Below, piece by piece: positions 22,052 through 53,680 of a stretch of 64,000 bases of DNA. Origin of the DNA: Acutalibacteraceae bacterium (GTDB lineage: Bacteria > Bacillota > Clostridia > Oscillospirales > Acutalibacteraceae); contig JAZSQD010000127.1 of NCBI GenBank assembly GCA_045537815.1, forward strand, positions 28,949-92,948, in the 5' to 3' direction. Each line of letters begins with the position of its first letter. Positions within the stretch are counted from its first letter, which is position 1. Below the pieces are notes generated by a model. It was not told the origin of the DNA, did no database searches, and saw only the letters and a program-made list of their open reading frames with translations. Position numbers and translations under genes: made by a program.

Positions 22052-24457
22052 TTATCTGATTGTTCCTGTATGCCAGATATCTCTTGCGTAATCGTTGATT
22101 GCACGGTCAGCTGCGAAGCGGCCTGCGCCTGCAATATTCATAAGAGACATTCTGTTCCAGCGGTCTCTGTCCTTCCATACGGTGTCGATATACTTCTGCT
22201 TCTTTCTGTAATCGGCGAAGTCTGCAAGCACCATATAAGGATCGTGATGAATAATTGTGTTTCCGATTTCGGGGAACTGCTTGCCGTTTATACCCTTCTG
22301 AATGAAGTCGATAACCTTGCGAAGCTCAGCGTTGTTGTTATAGTAATTCATGGGCTGATAGCCTCTGTTCTTAAGGTCAACTGCTTCGGGAGTAGTCATA
22401 CCGAAAAGGAACATATTGTCATCACCCACAGCCTCGTGGATTTCTACGTTTGCACCGTCAAGAGTACCGAGAGTGAGTGCGCCGTTTATCATAAACTTCA
22501 TATTACCTGTACCGCTTGCTTCGGTACCTGCAAGAGAAATCTGCTCACTGATGTCTGCGGCGGGCATAAGGGTTTCAGCCATTGATACGTTGTAGTCCTC
22601 GAGATAAACAACCTTGAGTCTGCCTCTCATATCGGGATCGTTGTTGATAAGGTTGCTGAGAGCACAGATCATTTCGATAATCTTCTTTGCAACGAAGTAG
22701 CCTGAAGCAGCCTTTGCGCCGAAGATATATGTGTGAGGTACATAGTCGCCGTCGGGATTTTCCTTGATTTCGAGATATCTTGCGATAATCTGAAGTGCGT
22801 TGAGGTGCTGACGCTTATACTCGTGAAGTCTCTTTACCTGAACGTCAAAAATTGAGTTGGGGTCAAGCTCGATGCCTGTCTTAGCCTTAACGAGCTTGAT
22901 AAGCTTCTTTTTGTTGCTGAGCTTGATTGCTTCAAGCTTGTCAAGTACCTTCTTATCGTCTGCAAACTTCTGTAATTTAAGAAGCTCATCTGCCTTATAA
23001 ACAAAGCCGTCACCGATAAGCTCTGTGATAAGAGCGGTAAGCTCGGGGTTTGACTGACAGAGCCAGCGTCTGTGAGCGATACCGTTTGTAACATTCTTAA
23101 ACTTGTCGGGTGTGAGCTGATAGTAATCGTTGAATACTGTATCCTTAAGAATCTGACTGTGAAGAGCAGATACGCCGTTAACGCTGTGGCAGGCAGCAAC
23201 ACAGAGGTTTGCCATTCTGATAACACCGTTTGAGGTAACTGCCATATTCTCAACCTTACCTGCATCGTGAGTCATTTCCCAGACGTGTGAACGGTAGCGG
23301 TTGTCGATTTCCTTAACAATCTGATGAATTCTGGGAAGAAGGCTCTTGAAGAGGTCCTCGGGCCAGCATTCAAGTGCTTCCTTCATAACGGTGTGGTTGG
23401 TGTAAGCGCAAGCCTTTGATACAATGTTCCATGCATCGTCCCAGCCGTAGCCGCATTCGTCAAGAAGGATTCTCATAAGCTCAGGAATTGCAAGTGTGGG
23501 ATGAGTATCGTTGATGTGTACTGCATTCTTCTCTGCAAAGTTTTCCATTGTGCCGAAGTGGCGAAGATGTCTTGCAACGATATCCTGCACTGAAGCGGAA
23601 ACAAGGAAGTACTGCTGCTTGAGACGAAGGCTCTTACCCTCGTAGTGTCCGTCGGAGGGGTAGAGAATCTTGCTGATAACCTCAGCCATAGCCTGCTGCT
23701 CCATAGCCTTCATATACTGACCCTGGTCAAAGAGTCTCATATCAAGGGCAGGTGCAACGCTCTTCCAGAGACGGAGGATTGAAATACCCTTGCCGTCCTT
23801 ACCGCTGACATACATATCATAGGGAACAGCAACGATTGTCTGTGCATTTCTGTGCTCAACGCCGTGGTAGTGGTTATCCCAGGTGTCAACGATTTCACCG
23901 CCGAACTTAACCTCAACGGTATCCTTTTCTCTTGCCTTGAGCCATACCTCGCCGCCGGGAAGCCAGAAGTCGGGAAGCTCTGTCTGCCAACCGTCTATAA
24001 GCTTCTGCTTGAAGATACCGCATTCGTAAAGAATACTGTAGCCCATACCGTAGTAGCCCTGAGTTGCAAGACCGTCAAGATAGCAGGCTGCAAGTCTTCC
24101 GAGACCGCCCTTGCCAAGACCTGCATCAGGCTCGCACTCATAAAGCTTTTCAAGGCTGATGCCCATATCCTTGAGAGCGGCAGTAAAGGTCTTTGTAAGA
24201 TTAAGATTATAAAGATTATTCTTGAGAGAACGGCCCATAAGGAATTCCATTGAAAGATAATAAATCTTCTTCTGAGTCTGATTGCCCTTTTCTTTTCTGA
24301 ATTCACGAAGACCGTCGTTCATAAGCTCTCTGACAATGAGAGAAACAGCCTTGTAGTACTGCTCGTCGGTAGCCTCGTTGGAATCAACACCGAAATAGTG
24401 TGAAAGCTTACCCTCGATAAGCTCCTTCGCTTGTTTCTTTGTAAGGGAATAATTCAT
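22052..24457 (-). CDS. glgP: Glycogen/alpha-glucan phosphorylase
   Basis: 801 aa with the LSMEFLMGR motif, the PLP-lysine motif EASGTGNMKFMINGALTLGTLDGANVEI, and an SD GGAGG. Confidence 0.95.
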   Translation of the reverse strand: MNYSLTKKQAKELIEGKLSHYFGVDSNEATDEQYYKAVSLIVRELMNDGLREFRKEKGNQTQKKIYYLSMEFLMGRSLKNNLYNLNLTKTFTAALKDMGISLEKLYECEPDAGLGKGGLGRLAACYLDGLATQGYYGMGYSILYECGIFKQKLIDGWQTELPDFWLPGGEVWLKAREKDTVEVKFGGEIVDTWDNHYHGVEHRNAQTIVAVPYDMYVSGKDGKGISILRLWKSVAPALDMRLFDQGQYMKAMEQQAMAEVISKILYPSDGHYEGKSLRLKQQYFLVSASVQDIVARHLRHFGTMENFAEKNAVHINDTHPTLAIPELMRILLDECGYGWDDAWNIVSKACAYTNHTVMKEALECWPEDLFKSLLPRIHQIVKEIDNRYRSHVWEMTHDAGKVENMAVTSNGVIRMANLCVAACHSVNGVSALHSQILKDTVFNDYYQLTPDKFKNVTNGIAHRRWLCQSNPELTALITELIGDGFVYKADELLKLQKFADDKKVLDKLEAIKLSNKKKLIKLVKAKTGIELDPNSIFDVQVKRLHEYKRQHLNALQIIARYLEIKENPDGDYVPHTYIFGAKAASGYFVAKKIIEMICALSNLINNDPDMRGRLKVVYLEDYNVSMAETLMPAADISEQISLAGTEASGTGNMKFMINGALTLGTLDGANVEIHEAVGDDNMFLFGMTTPEAVDLKNRGYQPMNYYNNNAELRKVIDFIQKGINGKQFPEIGNTIIHHDPYMVLADFADYRKKQKYIDTVWKDRDRWNRMSLMNIAGAGRFAADRAINDYARDIWHTGTIR

Positions 24458-24573
24458 AAAAAACCTCCAAAATTGTCTATGAAAAAGTGCTTGTTTTTCA
24501 ATTTATATGGTTATTTTATACTAAAATTGAAGAAAAATCAACAGTAAGAGAGAAAAAAGTTAAGACTTTATGA

Positions 24574-24950
24574 ATTAGGGACCAGGGATTAGAGATTAGT
24601 TGTAAGGGTCAAGGGAGTAGGGGCGGCCATTGGCCGTCCGAGTAGTCAGTAGTCAGTAGTCAGGGAAACGCCCGTTGGGCGTTTAATGGTGTGAGCCGAT
24701 TTATGCACTTAAAATAAAACCTCTCCCGTAGGGGAGGGCCTGTGTGCCCTCCCGGACAACTTGACGGGTAGGTGTATTTAACGGTTAACTCGGACGGTCG
24801 CCGTGGGCGTCGACCGCTACAATCTACCACTTAGATGCTGCACAAAACTTACCTCTGCGGAAAGAAACATAAATCGGTCAACGTAGTTACCCCGCGACCG
24901 CACCTATTCCCTAGTCCCTAATCCCTAGTCCCTAGTCCCAAGCCCCTGAC
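24574..24950. mobile_element. 377-bp non-coding composite element bounded by inverted G-rich/C-rich heptamer arrays (MITE/BIME-like)
   Basis: Left end: attaggg-type heptamers (24574-24623), REP GTAGGGGCGGCCATTGGCCGTCCG (24617-24640) and (AGTAGTC)x3 (24641-24663). The interior carries hairpin aacgccc-gtt-gggcgtt (24667-83), REP GTAGGGGAGGGCctgtgtGCCCTCCC (24728-53) and an inverted REP (24791-24820). Right end: ccctagt ccctaat ccctagt ccctagt (24909-24950). No ORF is present. Confidence 0.75.
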
Positions 24951-24983: not shown

Positions 24984-26411
24984 TTATTCAGCAATAACCT
25001 GCTTATACATCTTGATATATTCACTTGCGCTCTTGCCCCAGCTGTAATCGCATTCGATTGCACGGACAACAAGAGTATCCCAGTATTCTCTGTTCCAATA
25101 AGCGTCAAGACCGCGTCTTATTGCACCGAGCATATCGTGGGCGTTGTAGGTCTTGAAGGTGAAGCCGTTACCCTCGCCGTCGCCGCTGTCTGTGATTGAG
25201 TCACGAAGACCGCCTGTCTCACGGACGATGGGTACAGTGCCGTAACGGAGAGCTACCATCTGCGAAAGTCCGCAGGGCTCACTCTTGGAGGGCATGAGGA
25301 AGAGGTCTGCACCTGCATAAATCTTTCTTGCAAGAGAGGGAACAAAGCCAATCTTCACGCCCATCTTGTCGGGATACTTAGCAGCCATTTCCTTAAAGAA
25401 ATTCTCATACTGCCAGTCACCTGAGCCGACGATAGCAAACTGCACATCTGTTGTGTAAAGAAGCTCGTCAAGAATACCCTTGATAAGGTCGAGTCCCTTG
25501 TGGGAAACAAGTCTTGAAACAAGGCCGATAACGGGTACGTCTGCTCTTTCGGGAAGACCGAGCTCCTTTTGAAGCTCTGCCTTACAAGCCGCCTTGCCTT
25601 TCTTTACATCCTTTACGGTGTAATTCTTTGCAATAGCCTTATCTGTTTCCGGGTCATAGTTGATAACATCGATACCGTTGAGAATACCCTGCAGCTTCCA
25701 CTGACGCTCACGCAGAATAGTATCAAGACCGTGGCTATACCAGGGGTCGAGAATCTCGTTTGCATAAGAAGGAGAAACTGTTGTGACCTTGTTTGCACAT
25801 TCGATTGCGCCCTTCATAAAGTTAACGTCGCCGTCGTATTCAACAAGACCTGCCGCTTCGGGAGTAAGACCGATAACATCGTTTACAAGCTCCATACCGT
25901 AGGTGCCCTGATACTGAATGTTGTGAATGGTGAATACGGTCTTTATGCCGTGGTACCAGGGGTCCTTACTGTAAAAGGCTGAGTAGAACACGGGTGTAAG
26001 TGCGCTCTGCCAGTCATTACAGTGAATAATGTCGGGCTTGAAATCGATAACGGGAAGAATCTCAAGCACGGCACGGGCAAAGAAGGTGAATCTTTCCGCA
26101 TCGTCATAGTGGCCGTAAATGGTATCTCTCTTGAAATAGTACTGATTATCGATAAAGTAGTAGATGACGCCTTCGTGCTTTGCCTGGAAGATACCGCAGT
26201 ACTGTCTTCTCCATGCAACAGGAACCGAAATGTTTGTGATAAATGTCATCTTATCCTTAAGCTCCTGCTTGATTGTGTCATACATCGGCATAACCACTCT
26301 GCAGCCGATGAGTCTTTTTCTTAATGCCTGGGGGAGTGAGCCTGCAACATCACCCAGACCGCCGCTTGCCATAAAGGGCAGGGCTTCGCTGGTTACGTAT
26401 AATACTTTCAT
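24984..26411 (-). CDS. glgA: Glycogen synthase (ADP-glucose type)
   Basis: 475 aa, starting MKVLYVTSEALPFMASGGLGDVAGSLPQAL, with GT5/GT1 C-terminal motifs. Confidence 0.95.
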   Translation of the reverse strand: MKVLYVTSEALPFMASGGLGDVAGSLPQALRKRLIGCRVVMPMYDTIKQELKDKMTFITNISVPVAWRRQYCGIFQAKHEGVIYYFIDNQYYFKRDTIYGHYDDAERFTFFARAVLEILPVIDFKPDIIHCNDWQSALTPVFYSAFYSKDPWYHGIKTVFTIHNIQYQGTYGMELVNDVIGLTPEAAGLVEYDGDVNFMKGAIECANKVTTVSPSYANEILDPWYSHGLDTILRERQWKLQGILNGIDVINYDPETDKAIAKNYTVKDVKKGKAACKAELQKELGLPERADVPVIGLVSRLVSHKGLDLIKGILDELLYTTDVQFAIVGSGDWQYENFFKEMAAKYPDKMGVKIGFVPSLARKIYAGADLFLMPSKSEPCGLSQMVALRYGTVPIVRETGGLRDSITDSGDGEGNGFTFKTYNAHDMLGAIRRGLDAYWNREYWDTLVVRAIECDYSWGKSASEYIKMYKQVIAE

Positions 26412-26434: not shown

Positions 26435-26899
26435 GAGGAAGAAGTAGTCAGTAGCCAGTAGTCAGTAGTCAGGATTCTAGTTTAACTATAAGTGTGTTGA
26501 GCATTCTCGCAACTTCTTTGCATAAATCAAAAGCTCTATCCGCTTGTTCCTGCGTTATAAAACCCTGCCGTATACAAATTATCAATTGTGTTTCAATCTC
26601 AGCTCTTGAGCTTCTTGCCACAGACAAAAACTGACTGTACTCTTTTTTTGATTTTCTCTCATAGCCTTCTGCAATATTTGACGGGATAGAAACTGCTGCT
26701 CTTCTCATCTGATCGGAAAGAGCGAACATTTCTTCTTTTGGCAAAAGTTTTACAATCTTATAAGTTTCGTCCACTAAATCCATAGACCTCTGCCAGACTA
26801 TCAAGTCTTTGCAACCGTTTATATATCTTCACCTCGTCTCAAAATGCACCGTAGGTGCATCTCTGACTACTGACTACTGACTACTGACTACTCTTCCTC
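26435..26899. mobile_element. Inverted-repeat-flanked cassette carrying a four-helix-bundle gene, inserted in the glgD-glgA spacer
   Basis: IR-L is gaggaagaagtagtcagtagccagtagtcagtagtcag (26435-26471). The reverse complement of IR-R (26863-26899) is agaggaagagtagtcagtagtcagtagtcagtagtcag. By hand alignment the two match apart from one indel and about two substitutions. The cassette lies 15 nt after the glgD stop and about 20 nt before the glgA SD. Confidence 0.8.
26469..26804 (-). CDS. Four-helix-bundle protein (23S rRNA intervening-sequence protein / Avd-like family)
   Basis: Carries the family motifs (DL)IVWQRSMDLV...LPKEE...L.DQMRRAAVSIPSNIAEGYER.SKKEY.QFL.VARSS.AEIETQL. The only available start is a TTG inside the conserved DLIVWQ motif, with no clear SD. 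The N-terminus is therefore shorter than the family norm and the gene may be decaying. Confidence 0.75.
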   Translation of the reverse strand: MIVWQRSMDLVDETYKIVKLLPKEEMFALSDQMRRAAVSIPSNIAEGYERKSKKEYSQFLSVARSSRAEIETQLIICIRQGFITQEQADRAFDLCKEVARMLNTLIVKLES

Positions 26900-26916: not shown

Positions 26917-28026
26917 TTAAACCGTAATATTCTTTCCGACGTAAATCGGATAGGTTTCTGCGCCGCTGATTTCACGGGCGGGCTTGATTACAACATTCTT
27001 ATCAAGGATAGCACAGTTTACCTTTGCGTTGGCACTGATATAGCAGTCCTGCATAAGAATTGAGTTTTTGACAACTGCACCCTCGGCAACATATACGCCT
27101 CTCGAGAGGATTGAGTTTTCAACAGTACCCTTGATTATGCAGCCGTCGGAAACGAGTGAGCCTGATGCCTTTGAGCATATGCCGTAAATTGCGGGCATAT
27201 CGTCTCTTTCCTTTGTATAAACCGGCTTGTTTGCAGCAAAGAGATCTCTGTATTCACCTGAAAGAAGCTGCATGCTGATATCATAGTAGCTCTGGAGTGA
27301 ATCAATGGTCTTTGCATAGGAGTCAATTTTGTGGCCTCTTATCTTGAGTGTATTGACCTTAGCGGCAATTATATCTCTTTCAAAGCTCTTATATCCAAAA
27401 ATTACTAACTCACGGATAAGCTGAAGAAGGAGTGCTCTTGACATAACAATTATGTTCAGAGAATAGTCGCAGGCACTGTCTGAAGCCTCGCCTACGCTTA
27501 CTGCCGTGATTCTGTCACCGTCAAGTGTAAAGCTCATAGTGTTGTGAAGCTTGGGAGCAACACCTCTCTTATAAGCAACGGTGATATCTGCACCTGAAGC
27601 GATGTGACCGTCGATAATTTCGGTGTAATCGAGATTGCAGACAACGTTACAGTCAGCCAGAAGCACATAATCCTTACCTGACTTTGATATGTATTCGTTA
27701 ATGCCCTTGAGAGCAGCAAGTCTTCCTATGTATCCGTCAGCATATGTTGTGTTGAAGGGAGGAAGGAAGGTAAGACCGTCTCTTTTTCTTGAAAGGTCCC
27801 AGGGCTTGCCTGAGCCGAGATGGTCCATAAGTGACTGGAAGTTTGCCTTTGTGCTTACACCTACCTTGCCTATACCGCTGTTAACCATATTGGAAAGCAC
27901 AAAGTCGATAAGTCTGTATCTGCCTGCAAAGGGTACAGAGCCCATGGTGCGTACACTTGTGAGCTCACTTAAATATTCATCGTATACATTTGAATATACA
28001 ATACCTAAAACATTTGATGCGTACAT
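26917..28026 (-). CDS. glgD: Glucose-1-phosphate adenylyltransferase regulatory subunit GlgD
   Basis: 369 aa, a GlgC paralogue lacking the GGxGxRL motif and followed by left-handed beta-helix repeats. Its start shares a single nucleotide with the glgC stop codon. Confidence 0.9.
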   Translation of the reverse strand: MYASNVLGIVYSNVYDEYLSELTSVRTMGSVPFAGRYRLIDFVLSNMVNSGIGKVGVSTKANFQSLMDHLGSGKPWDLSRKRDGLTFLPPFNTTYADGYIGRLAALKGINEYISKSGKDYVLLADCNVVCNLDYTEIIDGHIASGADITVAYKRGVAPKLHNTMSFTLDGDRITAVSVGEASDSACDYSLNIIVMSRALLLQLIRELVIFGYKSFERDIIAAKVNTLKIRGHKIDSYAKTIDSLQSYYDISMQLLSGEYRDLFAANKPVYTKERDDMPAIYGICSKASGSLVSDGCIIKGTVENSILSRGVYVAEGAVVKNSILMQDCYISANAKVNCAILDKNVVIKPAREISGAETYPIYVGKNITV

Positions 28027-29240
28027 TATTTAACCCCCTCTACGTCTGTGTCGATCATTTCCTTTGCCTTGACTGCGGCACCCTTGCCGATTGTTACCTT
28101 TTCACCGATAACGGTTACGCCCCAGTTATCAAGATTTTCAATTGCCTCGGGGCTTTCACCGATGTGAGCACCCTCTTCGATAACTGCGTTTTCGGCTACG
28201 ATTGCATATTCAACAACCGCGCCCTTCTTTACTGTTGTGCCGGGCATAATGATTGAATATTTAACTGTTGCACCTTCTTCAACATTTACGTTTGAGAAGA
28301 GAATAGAGTAATCAACATTACCTGCTATGTAACAGCCCTCGCCGATCATTGAATTTTCAACCTTGGCGGTTTTGTCTGTGAAGTGGGGAGGTGCAACGGG
28401 ATTTCTTGAATAGATTCTCCAGCTGTCATCGGAAAGGTCAAGGTCAACCTTGGGATTGAGAAGATCAAGGTTTGCTTCCCAGAGACTTTCGATTGTTCCG
28501 ACGTCCTTCCAGTAGCCGTCAAACTTATATGCAAACATTCTCTCGCCTGCCTGATGCATTGCGGGGATAACGTTGTGACCGAAGTCGTTGTGTGATTCGG
28601 GGTCTGCCTCATCGTCGATAAGGTACTGGCGAAGCTTGCTCCAGGTGAAGATGTAAACGCCCATTGAAGCTTTGTTGCTCTTGGGATTCTTGGGCTTTTC
28701 CTCGAAGGCTGTGATTGAGCCGTCATCGTCTACAAACATAAGACCGAAGCGGGAAGCCTCCTCCCAGGGTACCTCAAGCATAGCGATTGTGCAGGCGGCA
28801 TCCTTTTCCTTGTGATAACGGAGCATCTTGTTGTAATCCATCTTATAGATATGGTCACCTGAAAGAACAGCTACGTATTCGGGATTGTATCTGTCGATGA
28901 AGTTGATATTCTGATAAATTGCGTTTGCTGTGCCCTTATACCATTCTGTGCCCTTAATCTGCTGATAGGGTGAAAGCACGTGAACACCGCCGTAGGAACG
29001 GTCAAGATCCCAGGGCTGACCGTTGCCGATGTAATCGTTAAGCTCGAGGGGCTGATACTGAGTAAGTATACCCACAGTTTCGATACCTGAGTTGATGCAG
29101 TTTGAAAGCGGGAAATCGATTATACGGTATTTACCGCCGTAAGGTACGGCAGGCTTTGCGATATTCTTTGTGAGTATGCCGAGTCTGCTGCCCTGTCCGC
29201 CTGCGAGAAGCATTGCGAGACATTCTGTTTTTTTGACCAT
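28026..29240 (-). CDS. glgC: Glucose-1-phosphate adenylyltransferase
   Basis: 404 aa with [43 protein letters not shown]. Confidence 0.95.
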
Positions 29241-29284: not shown

Positions 29285-29480
29285 TAAGTGAGTTTTTCAG
29301 GGGATTAGGTAACCCTCTCCGTCAGATGCCTTGCATCTGCCACCTCTCCCTGAGGGAGAGGCAAGAGTAAAGCAACTTGGTAAGAAGTATCTATCTTGGC
29401 TCTCCCTTTGGGAGAGCTGTCACGAAGTGACTGAGAGGGTATCCCTTGCTACTTGCTACTTACTACTTGCTACTTGCTAC
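29285..29480. repeat. Composite intergenic element: degenerate gggattagg, a multi-hairpin CTCTCCC/GGGAGAG module, then (TTGCTAC)x5
   Basis: Closing stem accctctc (29312-19) / gagagggt (29433-40) encloses four hairpins at 29323-39, 29343-61, 29399-417 and 29419-31. The heptamer array spans 29446-29480. Confidence 0.8.
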
Positions 29481-31368
29481 TTTTCTTAGGCTTATACTTA
29501 AGCAGAGTGAAGCTGAAGCCGGGCAAATCAAGAGTGATGCTGTTATCGAAGCCGTGCATAGGCACCTTCTTTGAGGTCGCTCTCTTACTGCCCTTGCCCT
29601 CGCCGCCGAATTCCTCGGCATCAGAGGAAAGGATAACCTCGTATACACCCTCTCTTTCCACACCGAAGGAGTATTTCTCCCTCATAACCGGCGTGAGATT
29701 ACATACTGCCACAAGCTCGTTGCCTTTTTTGTCTTTTCTTGCGAATGCGATAACACTGTTCTGATTGTCGTCACTCACAAGCCACTTGAAGCCCTCCCAG
29801 CTGTAATCAATTTCCCAGAAGGCGGGATTTTTAAGATAGATGTGATTGAGCTTCTTTACATAAGCCTTGAGCTGACGGTGCTTTTCATAGCCGAGAAGCA
29901 GCCAGTCAAGCTCACTGTCATACTTCCATTCGATAAACTGACCGAATTCCTGACCCATAAAGGTAAGCTTCTTACCCGGGTGAGCCATAAGGTAGCCGAG
30001 GAATGAACGTATGCCGCTGAATTTTTCCTCATATTCTCCCGGCATCTTGCCGATAAGTGAGCATTTTCCGTGAACAACCTCATCGTGTGAAATGGGAAGG
30101 ATAAAGTTTTCGGAAAAAGCATAGAAGAAGGAGAAGGTGAGAAGATTATGGTTATACTTTCTTGAAAGACCGTCCATCGAGAAATATCTCAGGGCGTCAT
30201 TCATCCAGCCCATATTCCATTTGAAGTTGAAGCCGAGGCCGCCGATATCCGTGGGCTTTGTCACAAGAGGCCAGGCAGTGCTTTCCTCGGCAATCATCAG
30301 GGGATTTTTAAACTCGCGGAAGATACCTGAGTTAAGCTTCCTGAGAAATTCAACAGCCTCAAGATTTTCGTTGCCGCCGTACTTGTTGGCAATCCATTCG
30401 CCGTCCTTTCTGCCGTAGTCAAGATAAAGCATTGAAGCAACTGCGTCAACACGAAGTCCGTCAATGTGATATTTATCCATCCAGAAGGCGGCCGATGAGG
30501 TAAGGAAGGAAATAACCTCGTTTCTGCCGAAGTCGAATATCTTTGTGCCCCAATCCTTATGCTCGCCCTTTTTCGGGTCCTTGTATTCGTAGCAGGCTTC
30601 ACCGTCAAAGTCAGCAAGTCCGTGTTCATCTCTCGGGAAGTGGGCAGGCACCCAGTCGAGAATAACGGAAATACCGTTCTGATGACACTTATCAACAAAG
30701 TACATAAGGTCGTCGGGAGTACCGTAGCGGGAGGTTGCGGCAAAGTAGCCGATTACCTGATATCCCCATGAGCCGTCGAAGGGATATTCGCTAAGGGGCA
30801 TAAGCTCAATGTGAGTGTAGCCCATATCCTTGACGTAGGGTACAAGACTTTCGGCAAGATCTCTGTAAGAATAAGGGTTGCCGTCCTCGTGAATTTTCCA
30901 CGAGCCTGCGTGCACCTCATAGATATTCATCGGAGACTCGTAAACGTTTATATTCGCCTTTTCTTTTTGCCATTTGCTGTCCTTCCACTTGTATGATCCC
31001 AGCTCATAAATCTTTGAGGCGGTCTCAGGCCTTGTCTGTGAGTGGAAGGCATAGGGGTCGCACTTGGCTGTTTTTTTGCCCGAGGGTGCCGTAACGAGGA
31101 ATTTGTAGCAGTCATACTGCTTTACTCCTTCAAGATAGCATTCCCACATTCCCGCATCGTTGATTTTTGTCATGGTGCCCTTTGATTCATCCCAGCCGTT
31201 AAAGTCACCTATAACGCTGACCGCCGCGGCGTGGGGAGCCCATACACGGAAAGAGAAAAGCTTATCGGTAACCCTGTGAGCGCCCATGTATTCGTAGGCC
31301 TTCATATTGTTGCCCTGATGAAACAGATAAAGGGCAACATCGTCACCTTTGGGTTTCTTTTCTGTCAT
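29470..31368 (-). CDS. glgB: 1,4-alpha-glucan branching enzyme
   Basis: 632 aa with a GH13 catalytic core ([28 protein letters not shown]). Its last codons, AGT AGC AAG TAG, lie inside the AGTAGCA heptamer array. Confidence 0.95.
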
Positions 31369-31667: not shown

Positions 31668-34151
31668 TTAATCAAAAAACATGCGTCCGTCTTCAGAATG
31701 GTTAAGCGCTTTAAAGAATTCATCCTCTGCAATAAGGCTGAGGAATGCTTGATGATCTCTTTCGATTCTTCCGCCCTGGAAAATACCGTAAATGTAGGGA
31801 TATCCTGTTACAGGCTCGTCGCTTGAATACATATATTCAAAGTTCTTTGCAAAGAAGACTCTTGCTCTCTCGTCGCCCTGCTCATTGATGAAATAAATTG
31901 AAACGGTGTCAAAGAAGCAGTTTTCAAAATCAATTGTCTCATAAAGCTTCTTTGAAGCAGCAACCATGTTCTCAGGAAGCTTTTCGTCAACGGCGAAGTC
32001 TAGACCTATTCTGAGATTTCCGCCGATTTCTTCGATAAATCTTACAGGGTAGGCTTCTTCTATTATCTTGCGGGTTTCTTCCTTAAGGAAAACATCTCCG
32101 AATTCCTTGTCTTCCTCGCTGAAGGTGTAGCCCTCAAGAGTGAGATAAATATCAAGACTGTTTTCATATATCGCCAGAGCAAGAGCAGGAAGCCAGCTGC
32201 TGTTTTCCTCAGCACCCTCAAGACAGGTGAAAACAAAGCTGTCACCCTCAACCGCCTTTGCTCTGAGAATGGGCATTGTCGAGGTTTTATCGACTATATA
32301 GATTTCATCCTTGCCCTCTGCCTGTGCCGCCTTGCAGAGATTTGCAAAAAGAGTCTTGTCACCTTCGGTCATGGCAGTGACCTTAAGTGCGGTAACACCG
32401 TCCGCCTCAGTAAGCTCAACATATTTATCCTTGCTGTAGGATATGGGAACAGAAGCCTGGGTATAGCCTGCGATAAAGGAAATTCCCGTTGAGCAAAGCA
32501 CTGAAAGAACACCGTTGTTGAGCTTGTCGGGTGACATCTTTACAACAATGAGATAGGGATCATTGATTCCGTAGCCGAGGGCGTAGGGCTCACCGAAGGT
32601 ATCAAGTCGGTTTTTAAGGCTTGTTAAGGTGTCAAGCCATTTGCCTTCGGATACGTTACCGTATTCTGAGCCACGGTAGCTCACGGAAATGGTTTCACCC
32701 TTGATTTCACTGTAGTTTTTCTGATTTGCACCGAAAAGTGCGCCCTCTTCAGACTTTTCCCAGTGGGCTGCAATATCTATATTTACTATAAGACTTGCGG
32801 CTGGATGCTCTGTGGTCATGTTGTTGATAAGCACCTCGTTGAGAGTGGGATGTCTGTCATCGTTGAGAATATAATATACGCCCTGCTTGTCTGCCTTGTA
32901 GGTGTCAAAATAGTAATAGCTGTCCGTCATTTCCACCTTATCCTGAGCAAACACAAGCTCATCGCCGAAAATCTCTATTTCTTCTTTGTTTTTCTTAAGG
33001 TAATCTGACTTGAGCACTACCTCTATGTATTCATAATTTTCCTTGTCCTGTACATTGTCTTCGTTAATCTCAGGCTCCCCGGGTATTTTACCCTTGAGAA
33101 GCTTAACCGACTCGATGTTTTCGGGGGCTACCTCTATCTGAGCTACCTCGGGAGCTTCGCTTGACCAACGGTTAGTTGTAAGATAAAGCCTTGCGGCTCT
33201 TGAAACATAGCACTTGATCATATCGGTTGCGGTAAGCTCACCGAAAAGCTCAAAGGGAACGATAAGGTCAACCGTATCACCCTCAACCTTTATTGAATAC
33301 CTCTGCCCGTCAGCAATAATATCCATTCTGTCCTTTACGGTTTCAGAGGCGGTCTTGAATTCTGCGGCGGTCATATTTTCGGGTGCGCTGAGAACGATAT
33401 GATATTTATACTCCATATCTGAGTACCAGAGATAATTATCGAGAGCAACCGCACCTGCAGAAACACCGATAACACCGACGAAGGCAAGGGCAACGATGCC
33501 GCCTGCCGTGGTTTTATTAATTCTAAACCCCTTAAGAGCTTTTTTTCTGAAAACAAACAGAGGGATAAAGCCGATTACAGCCGCAATAACAGCCCCGATA
33601 AGCTTAACCGCCATACCGAAGGACGAAAATACAACAAGATAAGCGGCGGCGGCAGCGCAAAGCCAGAGCCAGATAACAGAAAGAGTAAGCTTAAGACCGT
33701 AAAGCGGTTTTTTCGGCTTCTTATCATCTTCTTCGTCATCCTCATCTTCTCTATCAGGCTTAGGCACAGCCTTTTCAATATCGCTTACAAGCTTTGCCAC
33801 TCTGGAAGCATCGTACTGGAACATGCAGTGAATTGTGGCAAGATAATACTTGATGGTATCGCTGTATTCAGAATCGTCAAGCCTTATGGGGATAACGGGC
33901 ACCTGATTTTCAATAGCAAGCTGGATTTCACGGCTGACCTGACCCGAATGGTTTGAGTTGCCGCTTGAAAGGAAAAGAAAAACCGAGGAGTTCATAATAG
34001 CCTTTGAAATTTCACCCGCCCATTCCTTACCGTAGGGAATATCTCTGGGTGCAATCCAGCATTTCATATCGTTACTTTCAAGAGCGTCACAAATTATGGT
34101 TGCCGTTTTCGAATCCTTGCTCGAATGACTGATAAAAATTCTTTTCTCCAT
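31668..34151 (-). CDS. Membrane-anchored TIR-domain protein: N-terminal TIR, acidic linker, three predicted TM helices and a roughly 590-aa C-terminal ectodomain
   Basis: The N-terminus IFISHSSKDSKTATIICDALESNDMKCWIAPRDIPYGKEWAGEISKAIMNSSVFLFLSSGNSNHSGQVSREIQLAIE fits the bacterial TIR_2 pattern (FISxS...W...G..W...I.....S..S..S.W...E), with the candidate catalytic Glu at residue 75. Hydrophobic segments are LKLTLSVIWLWLCAAAAAYLVVF, MAVKLIGAVIAAVIGFIPLFVF and GGIVALAFVGVIGVSAGAVAL. Confidence 0.8.
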   Translation of the reverse strand: MEKRIFISHSSKDSKTATIICDALESNDMKCWIAPRDIPYGKEWAGEISKAIMNSSVFLFLSSGNSNHSGQVSREIQLAIENQVPVIPIRLDDSEYSDTIKYYLATIHCMFQYDASRVAKLVSDIEKAVPKPDREDEDDEEDDKKPKKPLYGLKLTLSVIWLWLCAAAAAYLVVFSSFGMAVKLIGAVIAAVIGFIPLFVFRKKALKGFRINKTTAGGIVALAFVGVIGVSAGAVALDNYLWYSDMEYKYHIVLSAPENMTAAEFKTASETVKDRMDIIADGQRYSIKVEGDTVDLIVPFELFGELTATDMIKCYVSRAARLYLTTNRWSSEAPEVAQIEVAPENIESVKLLKGKIPGEPEINEDNVQDKENYEYIEVVLKSDYLKKNKEEIEIFGDELVFAQDKVEMTDSYYYFDTYKADKQGVYYILNDDRHPTLNEVLINNMTTEHPAASLIVNIDIAAHWEKSEEGALFGANQKNYSEIKGETISVSYRGSEYGNVSEGKWLDTLTSLKNRLDTFGEPYALGYGINDPYLIVVKMSPDKLNNGVLSVLCSTGISFIAGYTQASVPISYSKDKYVELTEADGVTALKVTAMTEGDKTLFANLCKAAQAEGKDEIYIVDKTSTMPILRAKAVEGDSFVFTCLEGAEENSSWLPALALAIYENSLDIYLTLEGYTFSEEDKEFGDVFLKEETRKIIEEAYPVRFIEEIGGNLRIGLDFAVDEKLPENMVAASKKLYETIDFENCFFDTVSIYFINEQGDERARVFFAKNFEYMYSSDEPVTGYPYIYGIFQGGRIERDHQAFLSLIAEDEFFKALNHSEDGRMFFD

Positions 34152-34214: not shown

Positions 34215-34225
34215 GTGCTTGAGGA

Positions 34226-34464
34226 GGGATTAGGGATTAGGGATTAGTAGCAAAGGTAAGGGTTTTGATATTAGTAGTCAGTAGCCAGTAGCCAGTAGTC
34301 AGGGGAACGCCCGTCGGGCGTTTAATGGCGTAAGCCAATTCATGCCTCCGAGCAAAAATGATACGGTAGGGACACGGCTCGCCGTGTCCGCAAACCTGAC
34401 CGATAAATATATTTAATTTAACACGGTAGGGGCGTCCGTTGTGTCGTCCGAGTAGTCAGTAGTA
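34226..34464 (+). repeat. Composite repeat: (GGGATTA)x3, (AGTAGTC/AGTAGCC)x4, a conserved backbone, two REP hairpins and a second AGTAGTC stub
   Basis: Coordinates are gggattagggattagggattag at 34226-50 and the AGTAGTC array at 34273-34300. The backbone 34294-34346 matches 24657-24709 with 7 mismatches in 53 nt (hand alignment). REPs are GTAGGGACACGGCtcGCCGTGTCC (34366-90) and GTAGGGGCGTCCGttgtgtCGTCCG (34426-50). The stub agtagtcagtagta is at 34451-64. Confidence 0.85.
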
Positions 34465-34470
34465 AGGAAC

Positions 34471-34540
34471 TAATGGCGTGAGCCAATTCATGCCATAGGC
34501 AATTCATGACAAGGTCAATTCATGGCGTAGCCAATTCATT
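34471..34540 (+). repeat. Mini-hairpin array A: four 11-12-nt hairpins separated by ATTCA
   Basis: Hairpins are tggc-gtga-gcca (34474-85), tgcc-ata-ggca (34491-501), tgac-aag-gtca (34507-17) and tggc-gta-gcca (34523-33). Each is followed by attca. Confidence 0.9.
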
Positions 34541-34576
34541 CCATACAATATTATTGAGGGACCGGCAGCCAACAAC

Positions 34577-34659
34577 TGACCGCAGGTCAATAACACTATG
34601 CGAAGCGTAATATCACTGCATAGCAATAAAACTGCCGAGTGTCCTTGCGGACACTCGGC
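34577..34659 (-). repeat. Mini-hairpin array C (short copy) ending in the MFS gene terminator hairpin
   Basis: Order on the plus strand: tgacc-gca-ggtca, ATAACACT, atgc-gaa-gcgt, AATATCAC, tgc-ata-gca, ATAAAACT, gccgagtgtcc-ttgc-ggacactcggc (34634-59). This is near-identical to 38691-38788. Confidence 0.9.
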
Positions 34660-36829: not shown

Positions 36830-38461
36830 ATGAAATTCTTAAAAAAAGTACTTACTCCCCTCATAGCGGTACTCCTTGTTTTTGCTATGACATTTTCAGT
36901 TTTCGCTTCTGTAGGCACTCAGGTAAATGCCCGTGACCTTTTTGTTGCAAACAAAGCAGAACGAGTTTTCTTCGATGCTCTCGATGTTGCCGCCAACGCT
37001 CTTGTCAAAGCAATTGCAAGCTTCTTCCCTACACCCAGATATTGGTTTGACAAAGAAGATGTTCCCGGCTTTATGGAAGGCACTGCCGAATTTCTTGACA
37101 AATCTCAGGCAGGCGCAACATGGTCACTGGGCTATGACTCAAGAAGTCTTCTGCCCGAAAACAAAGAAGATGTTATCGGCAAATATTATGTTGCAGGCTC
37201 AATCGGCATCGACGGCAAGCTCGCTACAGGTGTTGAAGATGACCTTCTTGTAAGAACCGTTGCCCTTAACGATTCAACAGGCAGAGGCACTGCAGTTTTC
37301 ACCGTTCTTGACTCCTACGGTCTTTCACTTGCAGATGTGCGCGAAATCAGAACACGTCTTGCTGACTGGTCAAAGGAAAACGGCATCAACTCCATCACCG
37401 TTTCCGTTCTTCATCAGCACAGCGCAATTGACACCTTCGGTATGAACGGCAATATTTTCCGTATGGTATTTCTCAACCCTGCGCGCACCTTCTTCGGCAT
37501 TGAAACAGAAAACGGCAAAAATGATGAATACATGGAAAATCTCTTCAACAAAACTGTTGACTCAATCAAAGCCGCCTTTGCCGATATGACAGAGGGCGAC
37601 CTTTTCTACGGTACCGCAGATGCACAAAAATATATCTACGACAAGCGTCAGCCCTATATAAATGACCCCAACTTCAACCGTTTCCGTTTTGTACCCGATG
37701 ACGGCTCAGAGGAAACCTGGATTGTTTCCTCACAGATTCACTGCGTAGGCAACGGTGCAGCAGGAACTCTCGTAACAGGCGACTATCCTTACTATGCAGA
37801 GCAGGAAATCAATGCTCACGGCGCAAATGTACTTTTCATTATGGGCGCAGAACAGTCTAACACCCAGGAAAAAGACAAGACCACAGTTATCGACTACACT
37901 CCCAACGAGACAGGCATTGAAAACACAGTTGGCTACGGCAAATCAATTGCAAGAGATTTAATTGCAATCACCGAGGAAACAGAGGTTACTCCCCTTCTCA
38001 ACATCAGATATAAGGAAACTCTCCTTCCCCTGACAAACTCAATTCTTATGCTTGCAGGTAAAGCAAGTCTCTTTGAAAATATCATAAGAATCCAGAAGAC
38101 AGACTACTTCATTCTCACAGAAATCGGTTATATGGAAATGGGCGATAACCTTGCCTTTGCCATTGTACCCGGCGAGATTGCTCCCGAGCTTGCATACGGC
38201 GGTTGCCTGGGCGCTGACTACTCATGGTCAGGCGAAGACTGGCAGTACCCCTCAATGCAGGAAATCGTAACTGCCTCAGGCAACGACAGAGACCTTCACG
38301 TTATCGGCCTTGCCAATGACCAGATAGGCTACATCGTACCCGACAACGACTATATGTCAATGCTTCACGAAGACAGCAAGAGCATCGAGTTTGTTTCTCT
38401 GGGCAAAAACACTGCTTCAAAGCTTATTATGGCATTTGAAGATGTAGTTAATAACAAATAA
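36830..38461 (+). CDS. Secreted hydrolase, possibly related to the neutral/alkaline ceramidase N-terminal domain
   Basis: Has a signal peptide, MKFLKKVLTPLIAVLLVFAMTFSVFA. DDLLVRTVALNDSTGRGTAVFTVLDSYG...ITVSVLHQHSAIDTFG resembles the ceramidase-type L.VRA..l.d..g.r.a.v..D / ..tHtHs.p pattern. The family assignment is tentative. Confidence 0.4.
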   Translation: MKFLKKVLTPLIAVLLVFAMTFSVFASVGTQVNARDLFVANKAERVFFDALDVAANALVKAIASFFPTPRYWFDKEDVPGFMEGTAEFLDKSQAGATWSLGYDSRSLLPENKEDVIGKYYVAGSIGIDGKLATGVEDDLLVRTVALNDSTGRGTAVFTVLDSYGLSLADVREIRTRLADWSKENGINSITVSVLHQHSAIDTFGMNGNIFRMVFLNPARTFFGIETENGKNDEYMENLFNKTVDSIKAAFADMTEGDLFYGTADAQKYIYDKRQPYINDPNFNRFRFVPDDGSEETWIVSSQIHCVGNGAAGTLVTGDYPYYAEQEINAHGANVLFIMGAEQSNTQEKDKTTVIDYTPNETGIENTVGYGKSIARDLIAITEETEVTPLLNIRYKETLLPLTNSILMLAGKASLFENIIRIQKTDYFILTEIGYMEMGDNLAFAIVPGEIAPELAYGGCLGADYSWSGEDWQYPSMQEIVTASGNDRDLHVIGLANDQIGYIVPDNDYMSMLHEDSKSIEFVSLGKNTASKLIMAFEDVVNNK

Positions 38462-38519
38462 TATCACTTAAATGATAAACGCACCCGCCTAAATCGGGCA
38501 AGGTTGCTAAGGACAGAAA

Positions 38520-38559
38520 AGGGGTAATACGGTTAAAAACGTATTACCTCTGTTTTTTT
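38520..38559 (+). terminator. Terminator of the 36830-38461 gene
   Basis: ggtaatacg-gttaaaaa-cgtattacc followed by tctgttttttt. Confidence 0.8.
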
Positions 38560-38590
38560 CTTCTGTGGTAAAAAATGATTATGATAGTTT

Positions 38591-38788
38591 AAGTGATATT
38601 CCGACTGTGTCGGAGTGGTATTATTGCCACAGGCAATAGTAATATTGAAACTTTCAGTTTCAGTTTTATTTTATTCGCAAAAAACTTGCGAAGCAAATAA
38701 CACTATGCGAAGCATAATATCACTGCAAAGCAATAAAACTCGCCGCAAGGCGAATAAAACTGCCGAGTGTCCCGTAAGGACACTCGGC
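38591..38788. repeat. Mini-hairpin array C: eight small hairpins with AGTNNTATT-type spacers, mirrored between convergent genes
   Basis: The left arm reads on the plus strand: ccgac-tgt-gtcgg, gcc-aca-ggc and gaa-act-ttc, each followed by AGTGGTATTATT / AATAGTAATATT / AGTTTCAGTTTTATTTTATT. The centre is cgcaa-aaaac-ttgcg. The right arm reads on the minus strand: atgc-gaa-gcat, tgc-aaa-gca, cgcc-gcaa-ggcg and the 11-bp hairpin at 38762-88, each followed on the minus strand by AGTGTTATT / GTGATATT / AGTTTTAT / AGTTTTATT. Confidence 0.9.
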
Positions 38789-38811
38789 TAAGCGGTTGCG
38801 TATTATTTTGA

Positions 38812-39234
38812 TTATGAGACTACCGGCATTGTTTCCTGAGGCAGAATGTTATAAACGGTGCCGTCAGTAGCCGCCATACTTATAGGCACATCCGGCAAAA
38901 TCAGATGAATGGTGCTTATAAAGTTATTGCTGTTTTCACCGGGAAAACCGGTTACAAGAGTAATAGGCTTTATTTTTGCAGTATGGGCGCTGACCGTGAG
39001 AATGGGATCGTCACTGAAATAAATAGCCATTTCTCCGCCGTTGTTTTTAGCTGTCTGCCATAGGTTTTCCAATATATCCGGTTCGATTTTATATTCCCCC
39101 TGCTCAAAGGGCAGGACTGATATTACTTCCAATTCTGCGCCGTGTTTTACGGCAATTGCTTTACCTGCTTTCACAAGCTGCTTTGAAGACTCCTGCGGTG
39201 TTATACAAACAAGTACAGTTTTAGCCTTTTTCAT
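38812..39234 (-). CDS. Universal stress protein (Usp/KdpD-Usp-like) domain protein
   Basis: 140 aa with the alpha/beta pattern VLVCITPQESSKQLVKAGKAIAVKHGAELEVISV...ITLVTGFPG. Confidence 0.6.
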   Translation of the reverse strand: MKKAKTVLVCITPQESSKQLVKAGKAIAVKHGAELEVISVLPFEQGEYKIEPDILENLWQTAKNNGGEMAIYFSDDPILTVSAHTAKIKPITLVTGFPGENSNNFISTIHLILPDVPISMAATDGTVYNILPQETMPVVS

Positions 39235-52191: not shown

Positions 52192-53679
52192 ATGATAAGC
52201 AAAAGTGTAAAGAAACTTGTTAATTACGGCCTTGCAACGGAGCTTATTTCCAAAGCTGATGAAATTTATGCAAGAAACCGCATACTTGAGATATTGCATA
52301 TTGACGAGTACAAAGAAAGTGAAGATAAGTGTGCAGGCACCAACCTTGAAGAAATACTTTCAGAGCTTCTGAGTTATGCAGTGGAAAAGGGTATCATTGA
52401 TGACAATATCACTGACAGAGATTTATTTGACACCAAGCTCATGAGTGCATTGGTACCAAGACCTAGTGAAGTAATAAATAAGTTCTATTCAATTTATAAG
52501 ACTTCACCCAAAGAAGCAACGGAATATTACTACAAGCTCAGCAGGGACACAGACTACATAAGACGCTACCGTATAGCTAAGGACCTTAAGTGGACAACGG
52601 ACACAGACTACGGCGTAATTGACATCACCGTAAATCTTTCCAAACCCGAAAAAGACCCAAAGGCTATTGAAGCGGCAAAGAATGCTCCCCAGAGCGCATA
52701 TCCCAAATGTATGCTCTGTGTTGAAAATGAAGGCTACGCCGGCAGAGGCAATCACCCTGCAAGACAGAACCACAGAATTATCCCCGTTCAGATTGACGGC
52801 GGAAAGTGGGGCTTCCAGTATTCACCTTATGTTTACTATAATGAGCATTGCATAGTTTTCAACTCACAGCACACGCCTATGGTAATCAACAAGGGTGCTT
52901 TCAAAAAGCTATTTGATTTTGTCAAGCTCTTCCCTCACTATTTTGTGGGTTCAAATGCTGACCTTCCTATCGTTGGCGGCTCCATTCTTGCTCACGAGCA
53001 TTTCCAGGGCGGCAACTATGAATTTGCCATGGCGAAGGCACCTTGCGAAGAGTGTTTCACCGTAGAAGGCTTTGAAGATGTAAACGTCGGCATAGTCAAA
53101 TGGCCTATGTCAGTTATCAGACTCAGCAGCGCAGACACAGACCGTCTTGTTGAGTTGGGCGATAAAATTCTCACAAAGTGGCGAGCTTACACTGATGAAG
53201 ATGCCTTCATTTTTGCCGAGACCAAGGGTACACCCCACAACACCATAACACCTATTGCAAGAAAGCGCGGCGACAAATATGAGCTTGACCTTGTGCTTCG
53301 CAACAACATCTGCACCGAGGAGCATCCCTTAGGTGTCTACCATCCTCACGAGGAGCTGCACAACATCAAAAAGGAAAACATCGGTCTTATAGAGGTTATG
53401 GGTCTTGCCGTACTGCCCTCAAGACTTAAGTCAGAGCTGAAAATGGTTTGCGACTGCCTTGTTTCAGGTGAAGACCTGACGAAAAACGAAGCCACTGCAA
53501 AGCATGCTGACTGGGTTGCAACCTTCAAGGACAATTACACCTTCACCGAAGAAAATGCTGATGCCATTATCAAAAATGAGACCGGCAAGGTCTTCCTGAA
53601 GTGCCTTGAACACGCAGGTGTTTACAAGCGTGACGAAAAGGGTATGGCAGCATTCAGAAAGTTTATTGCAACAATATAA
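52192..53679 (+). CDS. galT: Galactose-1-phosphate uridylyltransferase, type 2
   Basis: 495 aa with the HEHFQGG motif and the long Firmicutes-type GalT architecture. Confidence 0.9.
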   Translation: MISKSVKKLVNYGLATELISKADEIYARNRILEILHIDEYKESEDKCAGTNLEEILSELLSYAVEKGIIDDNITDRDLFDTKLMSALVPRPSEVINKFYSIYKTSPKEATEYYYKLSRDTDYIRRYRIAKDLKWTTDTDYGVIDITVNLSKPEKDPKAIEAAKNAPQSAYPKCMLCVENEGYAGRGNHPARQNHRIIPVQIDGGKWGFQYSPYVYYNEHCIVFNSQHTPMVINKGAFKKLFDFVKLFPHYFVGSNADLPIVGGSILAHEHFQGGNYEFAMAKAPCEECFTVEGFEDVNVGIVKWPMSVIRLSSADTDRLVELGDKILTKWRAYTDEDAFIFAETKGTPHNTITPIARKRGDKYELDLVLRNNICTEEHPLGVYHPHEELHNIKKENIGLIEVMGLAVLPSRLKSELKMVCDCLVSGEDLTKNEATAKHADWVATFKDNYTFTEENADAIIKNETGKVFLKCLEHAGVYKRDEKGMAAFRKFIATI

Positions 53680-53680
53680 T

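Follow-up and report, generated by a model that had tools for sequence, protein, structure and literature searches.

A Gut-1-type array of spacers and mini-palindromes in a predicted terminator-loop insertion of gut Clostridia

In a window of 64,000 nucleotides, the whole stretch of DNA analyzed here, eight hairpins and eight 9-nt spacers alternate between two convergent genes. Sequence comparison assigns this array to the Rfam Gut-1 family, with a score just under the curated cut-off, and places it in an inserted block that sits in the loop of a host terminator hairpin and contains two terminator-like hairpins. We consider it probable, at roughly 60%, that the array is the core of a ~290-bp selfish insertion, MITE- or IVS-like in kind, that brings its own terminators, and that such arrays are a cis-acting DNA module.

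The element would land in the loops of terminator hairpins. Its first hairpin and spacer (H0 and S1) would replace the destroyed terminator for one gene and its second terminator-like hairpin would do so for the other, leaving the spacer/mini-hairpin array in a transcriptionally shielded pocket. From there the array may serve the element in cis, in mobilization and/or, as an operator region, in control of its own promoter. It would be maintained as DNA palindromes, probably via DNA hairpins, and not as a small RNA or a row of mini-terminators.

Anatomy of the array and its place in the Gut-1 family

The element is read here on the minus strand, from 38788 down to 38592, an interval in which the hairpins alternate with spacers reading AGTNNTATT or its complement and seven mini-palindromes of 7-15 nt each lie between the eight spacers. 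Spacer pairs 7-15 nt apart number 8 in the window against 0.01 expected from dinucleotide shuffles, which bears out the string of eight mini-hairpins and spacers described in an earlier note on this DNA. All 8 pairs fall at 38592-38761 or 34589-34633. Single 9-mers number 23 in the window against 11 expected, a surplus that the arrays explain. The features of the locus are as follows, L162 and L163 being close relatives introduced in the next section.

38812-39234, minus strand: gene for a 140-aa Usp-like protein, converging with the 543-aa gene
38792-38801, minus strand: ACGCAACCGC, the original host terminator's 5' arm, which now borders the insertion on its left (matches ACGCACCCGA, the corresponding arm in L162; complementary to 38479-38488)
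38762-38788, minus strand: H0, a G+C-rich hairpin of 11-12 bp, GCCGAGTGTCC-TTACG-GGACACTCGGC, starting 23 nt past the stop codon of the 140-aa gene; a component of the repeat (terminator scan)
38753-38761, minus strand: S1, AGTTTTATT, the T-rich tail of H0, with a variable base that pairs with the center (sequence, spacer scan)
38741-38752, minus strand: H1, CGCC-TTGC-GGCG, the first hairpin of Rfam Gut-1
38732-38740, minus strand: S2, AGTTTTATT (spacer scan)
38725-38731, minus strand: H2, GC-TTT-GC (sequence, alignment)
38716-38724, minus strand: S3, AGTGATATT (spacer scan)
38705-38715, minus strand: H3, ATGC-TTC-GCAT, d(GCGAAGC) on the plus strand; 3/3 scored stem pairs covary across species
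38696-38704, minus strand: S4, AGTGTTATT (spacer scan), covarying with S5
38687-38695, minus strand: H4, TGC-TTC-GCA (sequence, alignment, covariation table)
38671-38686, minus strand: center, AGTTTTTTGCGAATAA, which repeats in inverted form the 3' portion of S1 and the 5' arm of H1 and so gives a 12-bp long-range complement (RNAalifold and pair counts)
38592-38670, minus strand: inverted half, S5-S8 with H5-H7 (nhmmer right-half profile, 49.9 bits; stems covary)
38520-38551, plus strand: second terminator-like hairpin, with its T-run on the plus strand, which would serve the 543-aa gene; within the inserted block and absent from L162 and L163 (terminator scan)
38503-38515, minus strand: right-end motif TGTCCTTAGCAAC, resembling the arm and loop of H0; conserved far end of the composite (same motif in six named loci and others)
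38479-38498, minus strand: what is left of the host terminator, namely a duplicate of its loop and 5'-arm end, CCCGATTTAG, and its 3' arm, GCGGGTGCGT, with TTT after it (alignment to L162 and L163)
36830-38461, plus strand: gene for a 543-aa protein, converging with the 140-aa gene
34578-34659, minus strand: shortened copy 3' of an MFS gene, with H0, S1, H2, S3, H3, S4 and a variant of H4 (nhmmer 38 bits, model positions 16-82)
21216-21760: RAYT-like pseudogene (by similarity)

In the inverted half the spacers are S5 AATAAAACT, S6 AATATTACT, S7 AATACCACT and S8 AATATCACT, the last ending at 38592, and the hairpins are H5 GAAACT-GAA-AGTTTC, H6 ATTGCC-TGT-GGCAAT and H7 CCGAC-ACA-GTCGG.

Three consecutive spacers, sought in one genome per species, occur in at least 120 stretches. 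Nearly all of these belong to Clostridia of the gut or rumen, with the labels Acutalibacteraceae, Oscillospiraceae, Ruminococcus or 'Eubacteriales', and among the matches listed the full composite is present in ~100 species-level genomes of gut Clostridia. Its order is fixed: H0, four units of spacer plus mini-palindrome, the center, four inverted units, a further hairpin and an H0-like right-end motif. S1 to S8 span 169-178 nt across family copies, and each unit joins a 9-nt spacer AGTNNTATT to a perfect mini-palindrome of 7-16 nt. Across the ~100 species among the matches listed the spacers are nearly invariant and the intervening segments variable. Copies were compared with nhmmer profiles built from 35 copies (175 nt) instead of a covariance model, because MAFFT misaligns hairpins that differ in stem length; 84 of the 120 sources, among the matches listed, span the entire 175-nt profile. 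In flanking sequence an extra copy turns up about every 69 kb, for an estimated density of one per 60-70 kb, and some copies are syntenic between species. The earlier note had named a lack of recurrence elsewhere in the genome as part of what would refute it; the arrays do recur, within the window and in ~100 other genomes among the matches listed.

The window element matches the Gut-1 model (RF01706) at 38692-38762 on the minus strand with 48.3 bits (E 8.1e-9, model positions 1-77), a score 1.7 bits under the curated cut-off of 50 bits, and the model covers S1-S4. Homologous copies in eight other loci score 51-74 bits, above that cut-off, and the cmscan alignment finds the Gut-1 hallmark in the window, three consecutive short hairpins with a conserved GUGAWAU(U) linker. 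Conversely, the flanks of Gut-1 seed sequences, for example BAAZ01000095.1, contain the same H0 terminator hairpin, center and inverted half outside the published model. These matches support the window array as a Gut-1 family member. Gut-1 was reported in 2010 from 43 human-gut metagenome sequences and was rated by its authors as certainly RNA and not cis-regulatory, with no organism, context or function given (PMC2864571); in the searchable literature after 2010 we found nothing further on it.

The second copy in the window lies behind the MFS gene. Its H0 is the same as that of the array and, with S1, again scans as an intrinsic terminator. Three units follow, and the copy is without the H1 and S2 unit and without the inverted half; the recurrence that the earlier note described there is real. 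The two window copies do not carry the compensatory changes that had been read from them. They differ in one loop, by a substitution (aaa/ata), and on a single side of one stem (gcat/gcgt, a T.G wobble on the plus strand only); genuinely compensatory changes are seen only in other genomes. A search of the flanks of this copy for a split-arm partner found none.

Insertion site, flanks and gene context

Close relatives were reached through homologues of the 140-aa Usp-like protein. In L162 (97% protein identity) and L163 (91%) the same convergent gene pair is separated by a gap of 48-49 nt holding one simple bidirectional terminator, intact in L162 as AAAAAACGCACCCGA-TTTAG-TCGGGTGCGTTT, whereas the gap is 350 nt in the window and in four strain contigs (98% identical). 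At the nucleotide level, in one filled/empty pair, the additional block comprises ~290-300 nt (~38499-38791) and lies between the terminator arms ACGCAACCGC ... GCGGGTGCGT. Because the same gene pair has only the simple terminator in L162 and L163, the alignment identifies the window block as an insertion in a terminator loop and not as a gene-specific 3' UTR cassette. The target duplication in the window is imperfect, 9-10 nt long (ACCGCTTAG / CCCGATTTAG, arm end plus loop), and other copies have only 2-5 A/T-rich bases on each side and no obvious target duplication. H0 and the right-end motif share ~13 nt (TGTCCTTAnnAAC), whose orientation is ambiguous because H0 is palindromic. At the same site L164 (87%) has a mini-hairpin array of a different family, with the spacer ATGATGTA; in more distant relatives the element is absent behind the 140-aa gene and synteny differs.

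Elsewhere in the family the composite runs 70-250 nt past S8, via another hairpin, to the conserved H0-like motif TGTCCTTAGCAACCC. Whole composites are bracketed by an A-run plus arm on one side and a complementary arm plus T-run on the other, as in AAAACCTCCGAT/ATCGGAGGTTTT and AAAACCCCGTCGTTCA/TGAACGACGGGGTT. An exact inverted flank match of at least 10 nt is found for 20 of 61 elements, as compared with 4 of 61 in a control region, and the remaining 41 have no exact flanking match of that length. Copies linked to tRNA genes lie behind a whole, unsplit terminator.

Comparison of strains revealed six changes inside the element and five in an equal length of flank, and the changes in the window copy include the loss of 6 nt from H5 and two substitutions that break stems. 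This pattern supports neutral drift of the window copy, on which host-level constraint would be weak or nil. Several observations count against a selfish reading. Besides the tRNA-linked copies and the 41 elements with no exact flanking match, clean terminal repeats and target duplications are lacking, and the extreme conservation of spacers and architecture, together with synteny, implies selection, which could act at the level of the host.

The gene context of the family is asymmetric. An upstream gene (ORF of at least 200 aa) is co-directional with the H0/S1 side in 22 of 25 loci, its stop codon lying ~45-55 nt ahead of S1, and ~15 elements sit after tRNA genes or operons. The gene past S8 is co-directional in 18 loci and convergent in 11, and the S8 side often opens with a promoter fused to the last spacer. 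In different species, subfamilies of H0 follow genes that have nothing in common, among them ones with groEL-, tsf-, cysS- and ppdk-like C-termini, so H0 belongs to the element and is not a private terminator of the 140-aa gene. The earlier note had correctly seen that each arm lies past a terminator-like hairpin, but the one it took for the 140-aa gene's own is part of the repeat.

At both window loci H0 and S1, with 12 pairs (8 of them G-C) followed by AGTTTTATT, are predicted to form an intrinsic terminator, and the window array lies between two outward-facing terminator-like hairpins. S1 begins 0-1 nt past the terminator hairpin and, in tRNA-linked copies, past the full T-run. With outward-facing terminators on either side and strong terminators before S1 in the tRNA-linked copies, most transcripts should stop short of the array.

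Larger relatives of the element include a gene. At nine loci, behind unrelated upstream genes, a gene for a 114-118-aa four-helix-bundle protein of the 23S-rRNA-IVS family (PF05635, E 1e-28) lies directly past S8, and at no fewer than eight loci (at least 8) the -35 box of its promoter is fused to S8 in fixed register. Four of the gene-carrying composites (794-1249 nt) are enclosed by split terminator arms, behind groEL-like, cysS-like and other genes. The window copy contains no ORF and would be a non-coding derivative of the gene-carrying form. Our search for a transposase or recombinase of the element identified none, the four-helix-bundle gene being the only conserved associated gene; a transposase is adjacent only as a RAYT-like gene in 3 of 120 loci among the matches listed.

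A broader proposal, which we put forward tentatively and hold to be less likely than not, is that Gut-1-type arrays are non-coding forms of an unrecognized class of mobile elements that targets hairpin loops and is related to 23S rRNA intervening sequences. Such a class would have a single conserved gene, the one for the Avd-like four-helix-bundle protein. The convergent arrays of 9-mers and d(C-GNA-G) hairpins might then be a recognition or assembly platform, probably as single-stranded DNA, and the element's own terminators would allow a life inside host terminators at little cost.

Palindromes, strand signature and competing readings

The segments between spacers are palindromes far beyond expectation. 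With a stem of 4 bp or more required, 67% of 348 distinct inter-spacer segments are perfectly palindromic, as compared with 0.6% in shuffles. In an alignment of 35 sequences the paired share of cells is 96.5%; shuffling the partners lowers it to 73% and sliding them to 35-43%. Double-sided changes are found at 24 of 32 pairs. S1 always reads AGTT[T/A/C]TATT, with a variable position that is complementary to the center in 36 of 37 elements. S1 and the 5' arm of H1 together form the 12-bp complement to the center, in which the variable pair is UA in 18 cases, AU in 11 and CG in 5 and hence covaries. S4 covaries with S5 across elements (24 observed, 15 expected). A rod made by pairing all left with all right spacers was ruled out, since only S4 and S5 covary, as was kissing of left TNC loops with right GNA loops, for which there is no within-element complementarity.

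A structured RNA would be expected to have just such strong covariation and a 12-bp long-range helix, and both count against the selfish-DNA reading. In the reading that follows Rfam and Weinberg, the forward strand of a free-standing structured non-coding RNA would be transcribed, the helix between S1 and the center would close a domain of H2-H4, H5-H7 would form a tail, and the 9-mers would be protein- or RNA-binding linkers. The Gut-1 covariance model, its authors' firm rating and a fold z-score of -8.5 all favor such an RNA, but we regard it as unlikely. Both strands fold equally well, there is no space for a promoter where S1 adjoins the terminator hairpin or T-run, and the array is flanked by two outward-facing terminators. 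In the same 35-sequence alignment 240 changes are double-sided and ~15 single-sided, so that single-sided changes are ~16 times rarer. Enclosed mismatches are G.T in 14 cases and A.C in 10, both together ~2% of pairs; G.U, at ~1% of pairs, is not commoner than A.C, and the asymmetry by which a transcribed strand might have been picked is absent. The window copy, moreover, drifts neutrally among strains and is missing from close relatives. A promoter in the center (TANAAT) was also considered and ruled out, the distance to any -35-like hexamer being inconstant (17-20 nt) and the scan empty on that strand.

The loops have a strand signature of their own. With the spacer in its AGTNNTATT orientation they are C(TNC)G or C(TNNC)G, and on the opposite strand C(GNA)G or C(GNNA)G, and the favored strand switches between the left and right halves at the center. 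Given that loop bias and unit polarity flip there together, no single strand holds all of the favored loops, which again speaks against a single RNA. GNA loops closed by C-G are classic hyper-stable DNA mini-hairpins, and H2/H3 on the C(GNA)G strand read d(GCGAAGC). Stems that are almost purely Watson-Crick without a G·U excess, the polarity flip and neutral drift argue together against a small RNA or a series of mini-terminators.

The latter had been the proposal of the earlier note, in which each arm is a 3'-UTR cassette of the incoming gene that acts in back-up termination, pausing or protection from 3' exonucleases. The polarity is indeed inward on both sides, so that RNA from either side would meet AGUNNUAUU-hairpin units; the mostly co-directional upstream genes fit as well, S1 and S2 are the most T-rich spacers, and H1 and H7 pass a terminator scan, weakly, with flanking spacer bases (ATT/AGT) counted as stem. 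We nevertheless find this cassette quite improbable. H1 and H7 are the only units to pass (5 or more stem pairs, then 5 or more T among 8 bases), and a typical unit, with a stem of 2-6 bp and the tail AGTGATATT, makes a poor terminator. Strong terminators ahead of both arms should let little RNA arrive, what lies beyond the far arm is a co-directional gene or a promoter in 18 of 29 loci, and the same gene pair in relatives has a single 48-nt terminator. G.U is tolerated no more than A.C. The opposite polarity of the two arms stands, and the earlier note's reading is in that part right, but the converging genes do not set it: the 4+4 mirror is a fixed property of the element.

Alternatively, the 9-mers could be binding sites in duplex DNA, operator- or iteron-like, four direct and four inverted, for the four-helix-bundle protein or a host factor, with the palindromes incidental or structural. 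Near-invariant 9-mers amid variable sequence, the fixed register of S8 with the -35 box and the co-variation of the inner pair S4/S5, like that of two half-sites, would all be accounted for. The palindromes themselves, the strand-specific loop bias and the complementarity between S1 and the center would not, and the spacing of the sites varies from 16 to 25 bp; on this balance we give such duplex sites, too, only a slim chance.

Least probable is a REP/BIME-type repeat moved by a RAYT (Y1 HUH) transposase on single-stranded DNA hairpins: a RAYT-like gene lies 17 kb from the element in the window and within 8 kb of it in three other loci, and the extragenic 3'-end location, the mosaic of palindromes and conserved linkers and the d(C-GNA-G) loops, generally known for their stability in DNA mini-hairpins, would suit it, but the units have no GTAG motif, the window gene is interrupted and sits amid different GTAG-plus-hairpin REPs of its own, and GTAG-hairpins and heptamer arrays are not enriched near elements (11.3% in 11.8% of sequence). 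Proximity statistics, with three further RAYT-like cases in 759 kb, give the RAYT/REP linkage no support.

Relation to known systems

Listed in Rfam since 2010 as an orphan sRNA of uncultured gut bacteria, Gut-1 now gains hosts among the Acutalibacteraceae, the Oscillospiraceae and their relatives in the gut Clostridia, a complete anatomy that exceeds the model more than twofold in size and an apparent genomic behavior, namely insertion in terminator loops with built-in replacement terminators. The orphan motif thereby becomes a testable mobile-element system, and filled sites could now be compared with empty ones by the hundred in metagenome-assembled genomes. The link to a four-helix-bundle protein bears on an old question, the nature and movement of IVS/S23p elements. 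For annotators, Gut-1-type loci should not be counted as sRNA genes without expression data, and the H0 hairpins could supply portable terminators for Clostridia.

Several other identities were ruled out. The only CRISPR match is a 20-bit chance match to a repeat model, and a phage or plasmid origin has one weak phage match and zero plasmid matches to its name. Among pattern matches in viral contigs, 33 of 34 are without hairpins and represent chance in A+T-rich contigs. A cyanobacterial STRR/SDR origin, suggested by heptamer repeats, was dismissed because the proteins and related loci are those of Clostridia. Small dispersed repeats and heptamer repeats of Nostoc were reportedly described by Elhai et al. 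in 2008; they share with the present element tiny intergenic hairpin-forming repeats in a genome with tandem heptamer arrays. This is a resemblance only, since the organism is unrelated and the conserved part here is the linker and not the hairpin.

The element shares with REP/BIME/REPIN sequences and their RAYT proteins (PMC3116915) an extragenic mosaic of palindromes and linkers at 3' ends, with direct and inverted units, and a RAYT-like gene in the window. REP/BIME palindromes, however, are imperfect, 20-40 nt long and marked by a 5' GTAG, whereas those here are perfect, 7-16 nt long, flanked by AGTNNTATT and without GTAG; here, too, the palindromes vary between copies while the linkers are constant, and there is no enrichment of RAYT or GTAG-REPs nearby. 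Likeness to MITEs extends to a size of 0.3 kb, the lack of coding sequence, multiple copies, presence/absence polymorphism in close relatives, longer gene-carrying relatives and ends that share ~13 nt. Unlike MITEs, the element lacks clean terminal inverted repeats, a constant target duplication and a gene for a transposase, and its target is a hairpin loop.

The published Gut-1 model has 77 nt and three hairpins, which here form one half of a composite that measures 285-390 nt or, in long versions, 0.8-1.25 kb; and where Gut-1 was called an sRNA, its hosts here are Oscillospirales-type Clostridia and its behavior is that of an insertion. The 23S rRNA intervening sequences of Coxiella and Leptospira are selfish inserts that replace the tetraloop of a helix, have complementary borders and contain an S23p ORF (PMC4990558). 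Replacement of a small hairpin loop, complementary flanks and sporadic distribution are common to these IVSs and the present element, and its long forms encode a protein of the S23p/PF05635 family as well, the window copy being without an ORF. What is targeted here is the hairpin of an intrinsic terminator that follows protein or tRNA genes and not helix 9, 25 or 45 of 23S rRNA, where IVSs are excised by RNase III, and spacer/mini-hairpin arrays are not known in IVSs. The element is thus a fuller description of known kinds, the Gut-1 motif and IVS-like and MITE-like inserts, and not a new category.

Variation within the element and its associated motif

Four strain contigs of the window locus (L002-L005) differ from the window inside the element, the Gut-1 spacer and mini-hairpin composite. 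A 6-nt indel, AAACTG, is found in spacer S5/hairpin H5 (window 38640-38670), the H1 loop varies as TTGC/TTAC, and substitutions break the stem of H4 in L005 and of H5 in all four contigs.

Stand-alone half-elements were also found, in L070, L077, L078, L106 and L076. The L070 copies (4003-4093 and 5367-5466) possess only the left half and lie downstream of a terminator. Arrays made solely of AATATCACT units occur in L077 (1927-2206), where the array is tandemly duplicated, and in L078 and L106, and L076 terminates in a hairpin holding a perfect DnaA-box-like TGTGGATAA. Among the viral-collection contigs, only L131 (IMG/VR, ~8240-8440) holds a true three-unit piece of the array; a long heptamer array of CCACTGT/CCACTCT borders it where the contig ends.

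One further motif, GGGTWTGGGnnnnnCCC…GCATTTGTAnnTACAAAGGCG, is conserved and lies after the element promoter or after the four-helix-bundle gene that longer relatives of the element carry (L124 ~5940, L075 ~920, L088 ~5650, L028, L072 2966-3010, L032 and L043 ~7715-7760); in L043 it sits between an element and a RAYT-like gene (REP-associated tyrosine transposase). Rfam gave no match to the motif at gathering score; it could represent a small RNA or a structured leader belonging to the element.

Other mini-hairpin array families

A different array family is found at window 53680-53958, between a galT-like gene (52192-53679) and a convergent lipase-like gene (53971-55185). Spacers TATATCAT / ATGATATA and mini-hairpins form two facing arms, each opened by a longer hairpin beside the stop codon, with a bidirectional terminator at the centre. 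In the relative L164 the site of the element holds a family related to this one, with spacer ATGATGTA.

A third family (34320-34345 and 34470-34545, minus strand) consists of four units of ATGAATT and a 3-4-bp hairpin. The MFS gene and a TIR-domain gene (31668-34151) are separated by a 525-nt mosaic, in which this family runs directly into heptamers, GTAG-hairpins and the truncated Gut-1 copy.

A possible cassette and heptamer arrays of the glycogen operon region

Features of the first half of the window
start near 11,900, continuing past the window start, minus: giant ORF, at least 3972 aa
12363-20153, minus: giant ORF, 2596 aa
21216-21760, minus: RAYT-like Y1 transposase gene (PF01797, E 3e-8)
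22052-24457: glycogen phosphorylase
24984-26411: glycogen synthase-like gene
26469-26804, minus: second four-helix-bundle (23S-rRNA-IVS-family) gene (PF05635, E 5e-39)
26917-29240: glgC/D-like
29470-31368: branching enzyme
21933-22016, 24570-24947, 29293-29482, 34225-34302: heptamer arrays and GTAG-hairpins

Both giant ORFs (window 1-20153) presumably encode cell-surface proteins. The RAYT-like gene, whose NCBIfam REP-associated tyrosine transposase match (E 1.5e-16) is under the cut-off, is interrupted by an in-frame TAA (…NYDYSSPGA*FITVCTHN…) and has REP-like units of GTAG plus hairpin within it and nearby (21425, 21610 and 21979). The locus is probably a RAYT in decay, accompanied by REPs of its own.

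The intergenic gaps of the glycogen operon are filled with tandem heptamer arrays (AGTAGTC, AGGGATT/CCCTAAT and CTTGCTA) and GTAG-hairpins. Such heptamer arrays are rare among the 120 related loci listed, with only 2 outside the window. Inverted arrays, (AGTAGTC)x4 and (CTGACTA)x4, stand on either side of the second four-helix-bundle gene, and the whole (26443-26892) resembles one more small cassette that has been inserted between the glycogen genes.
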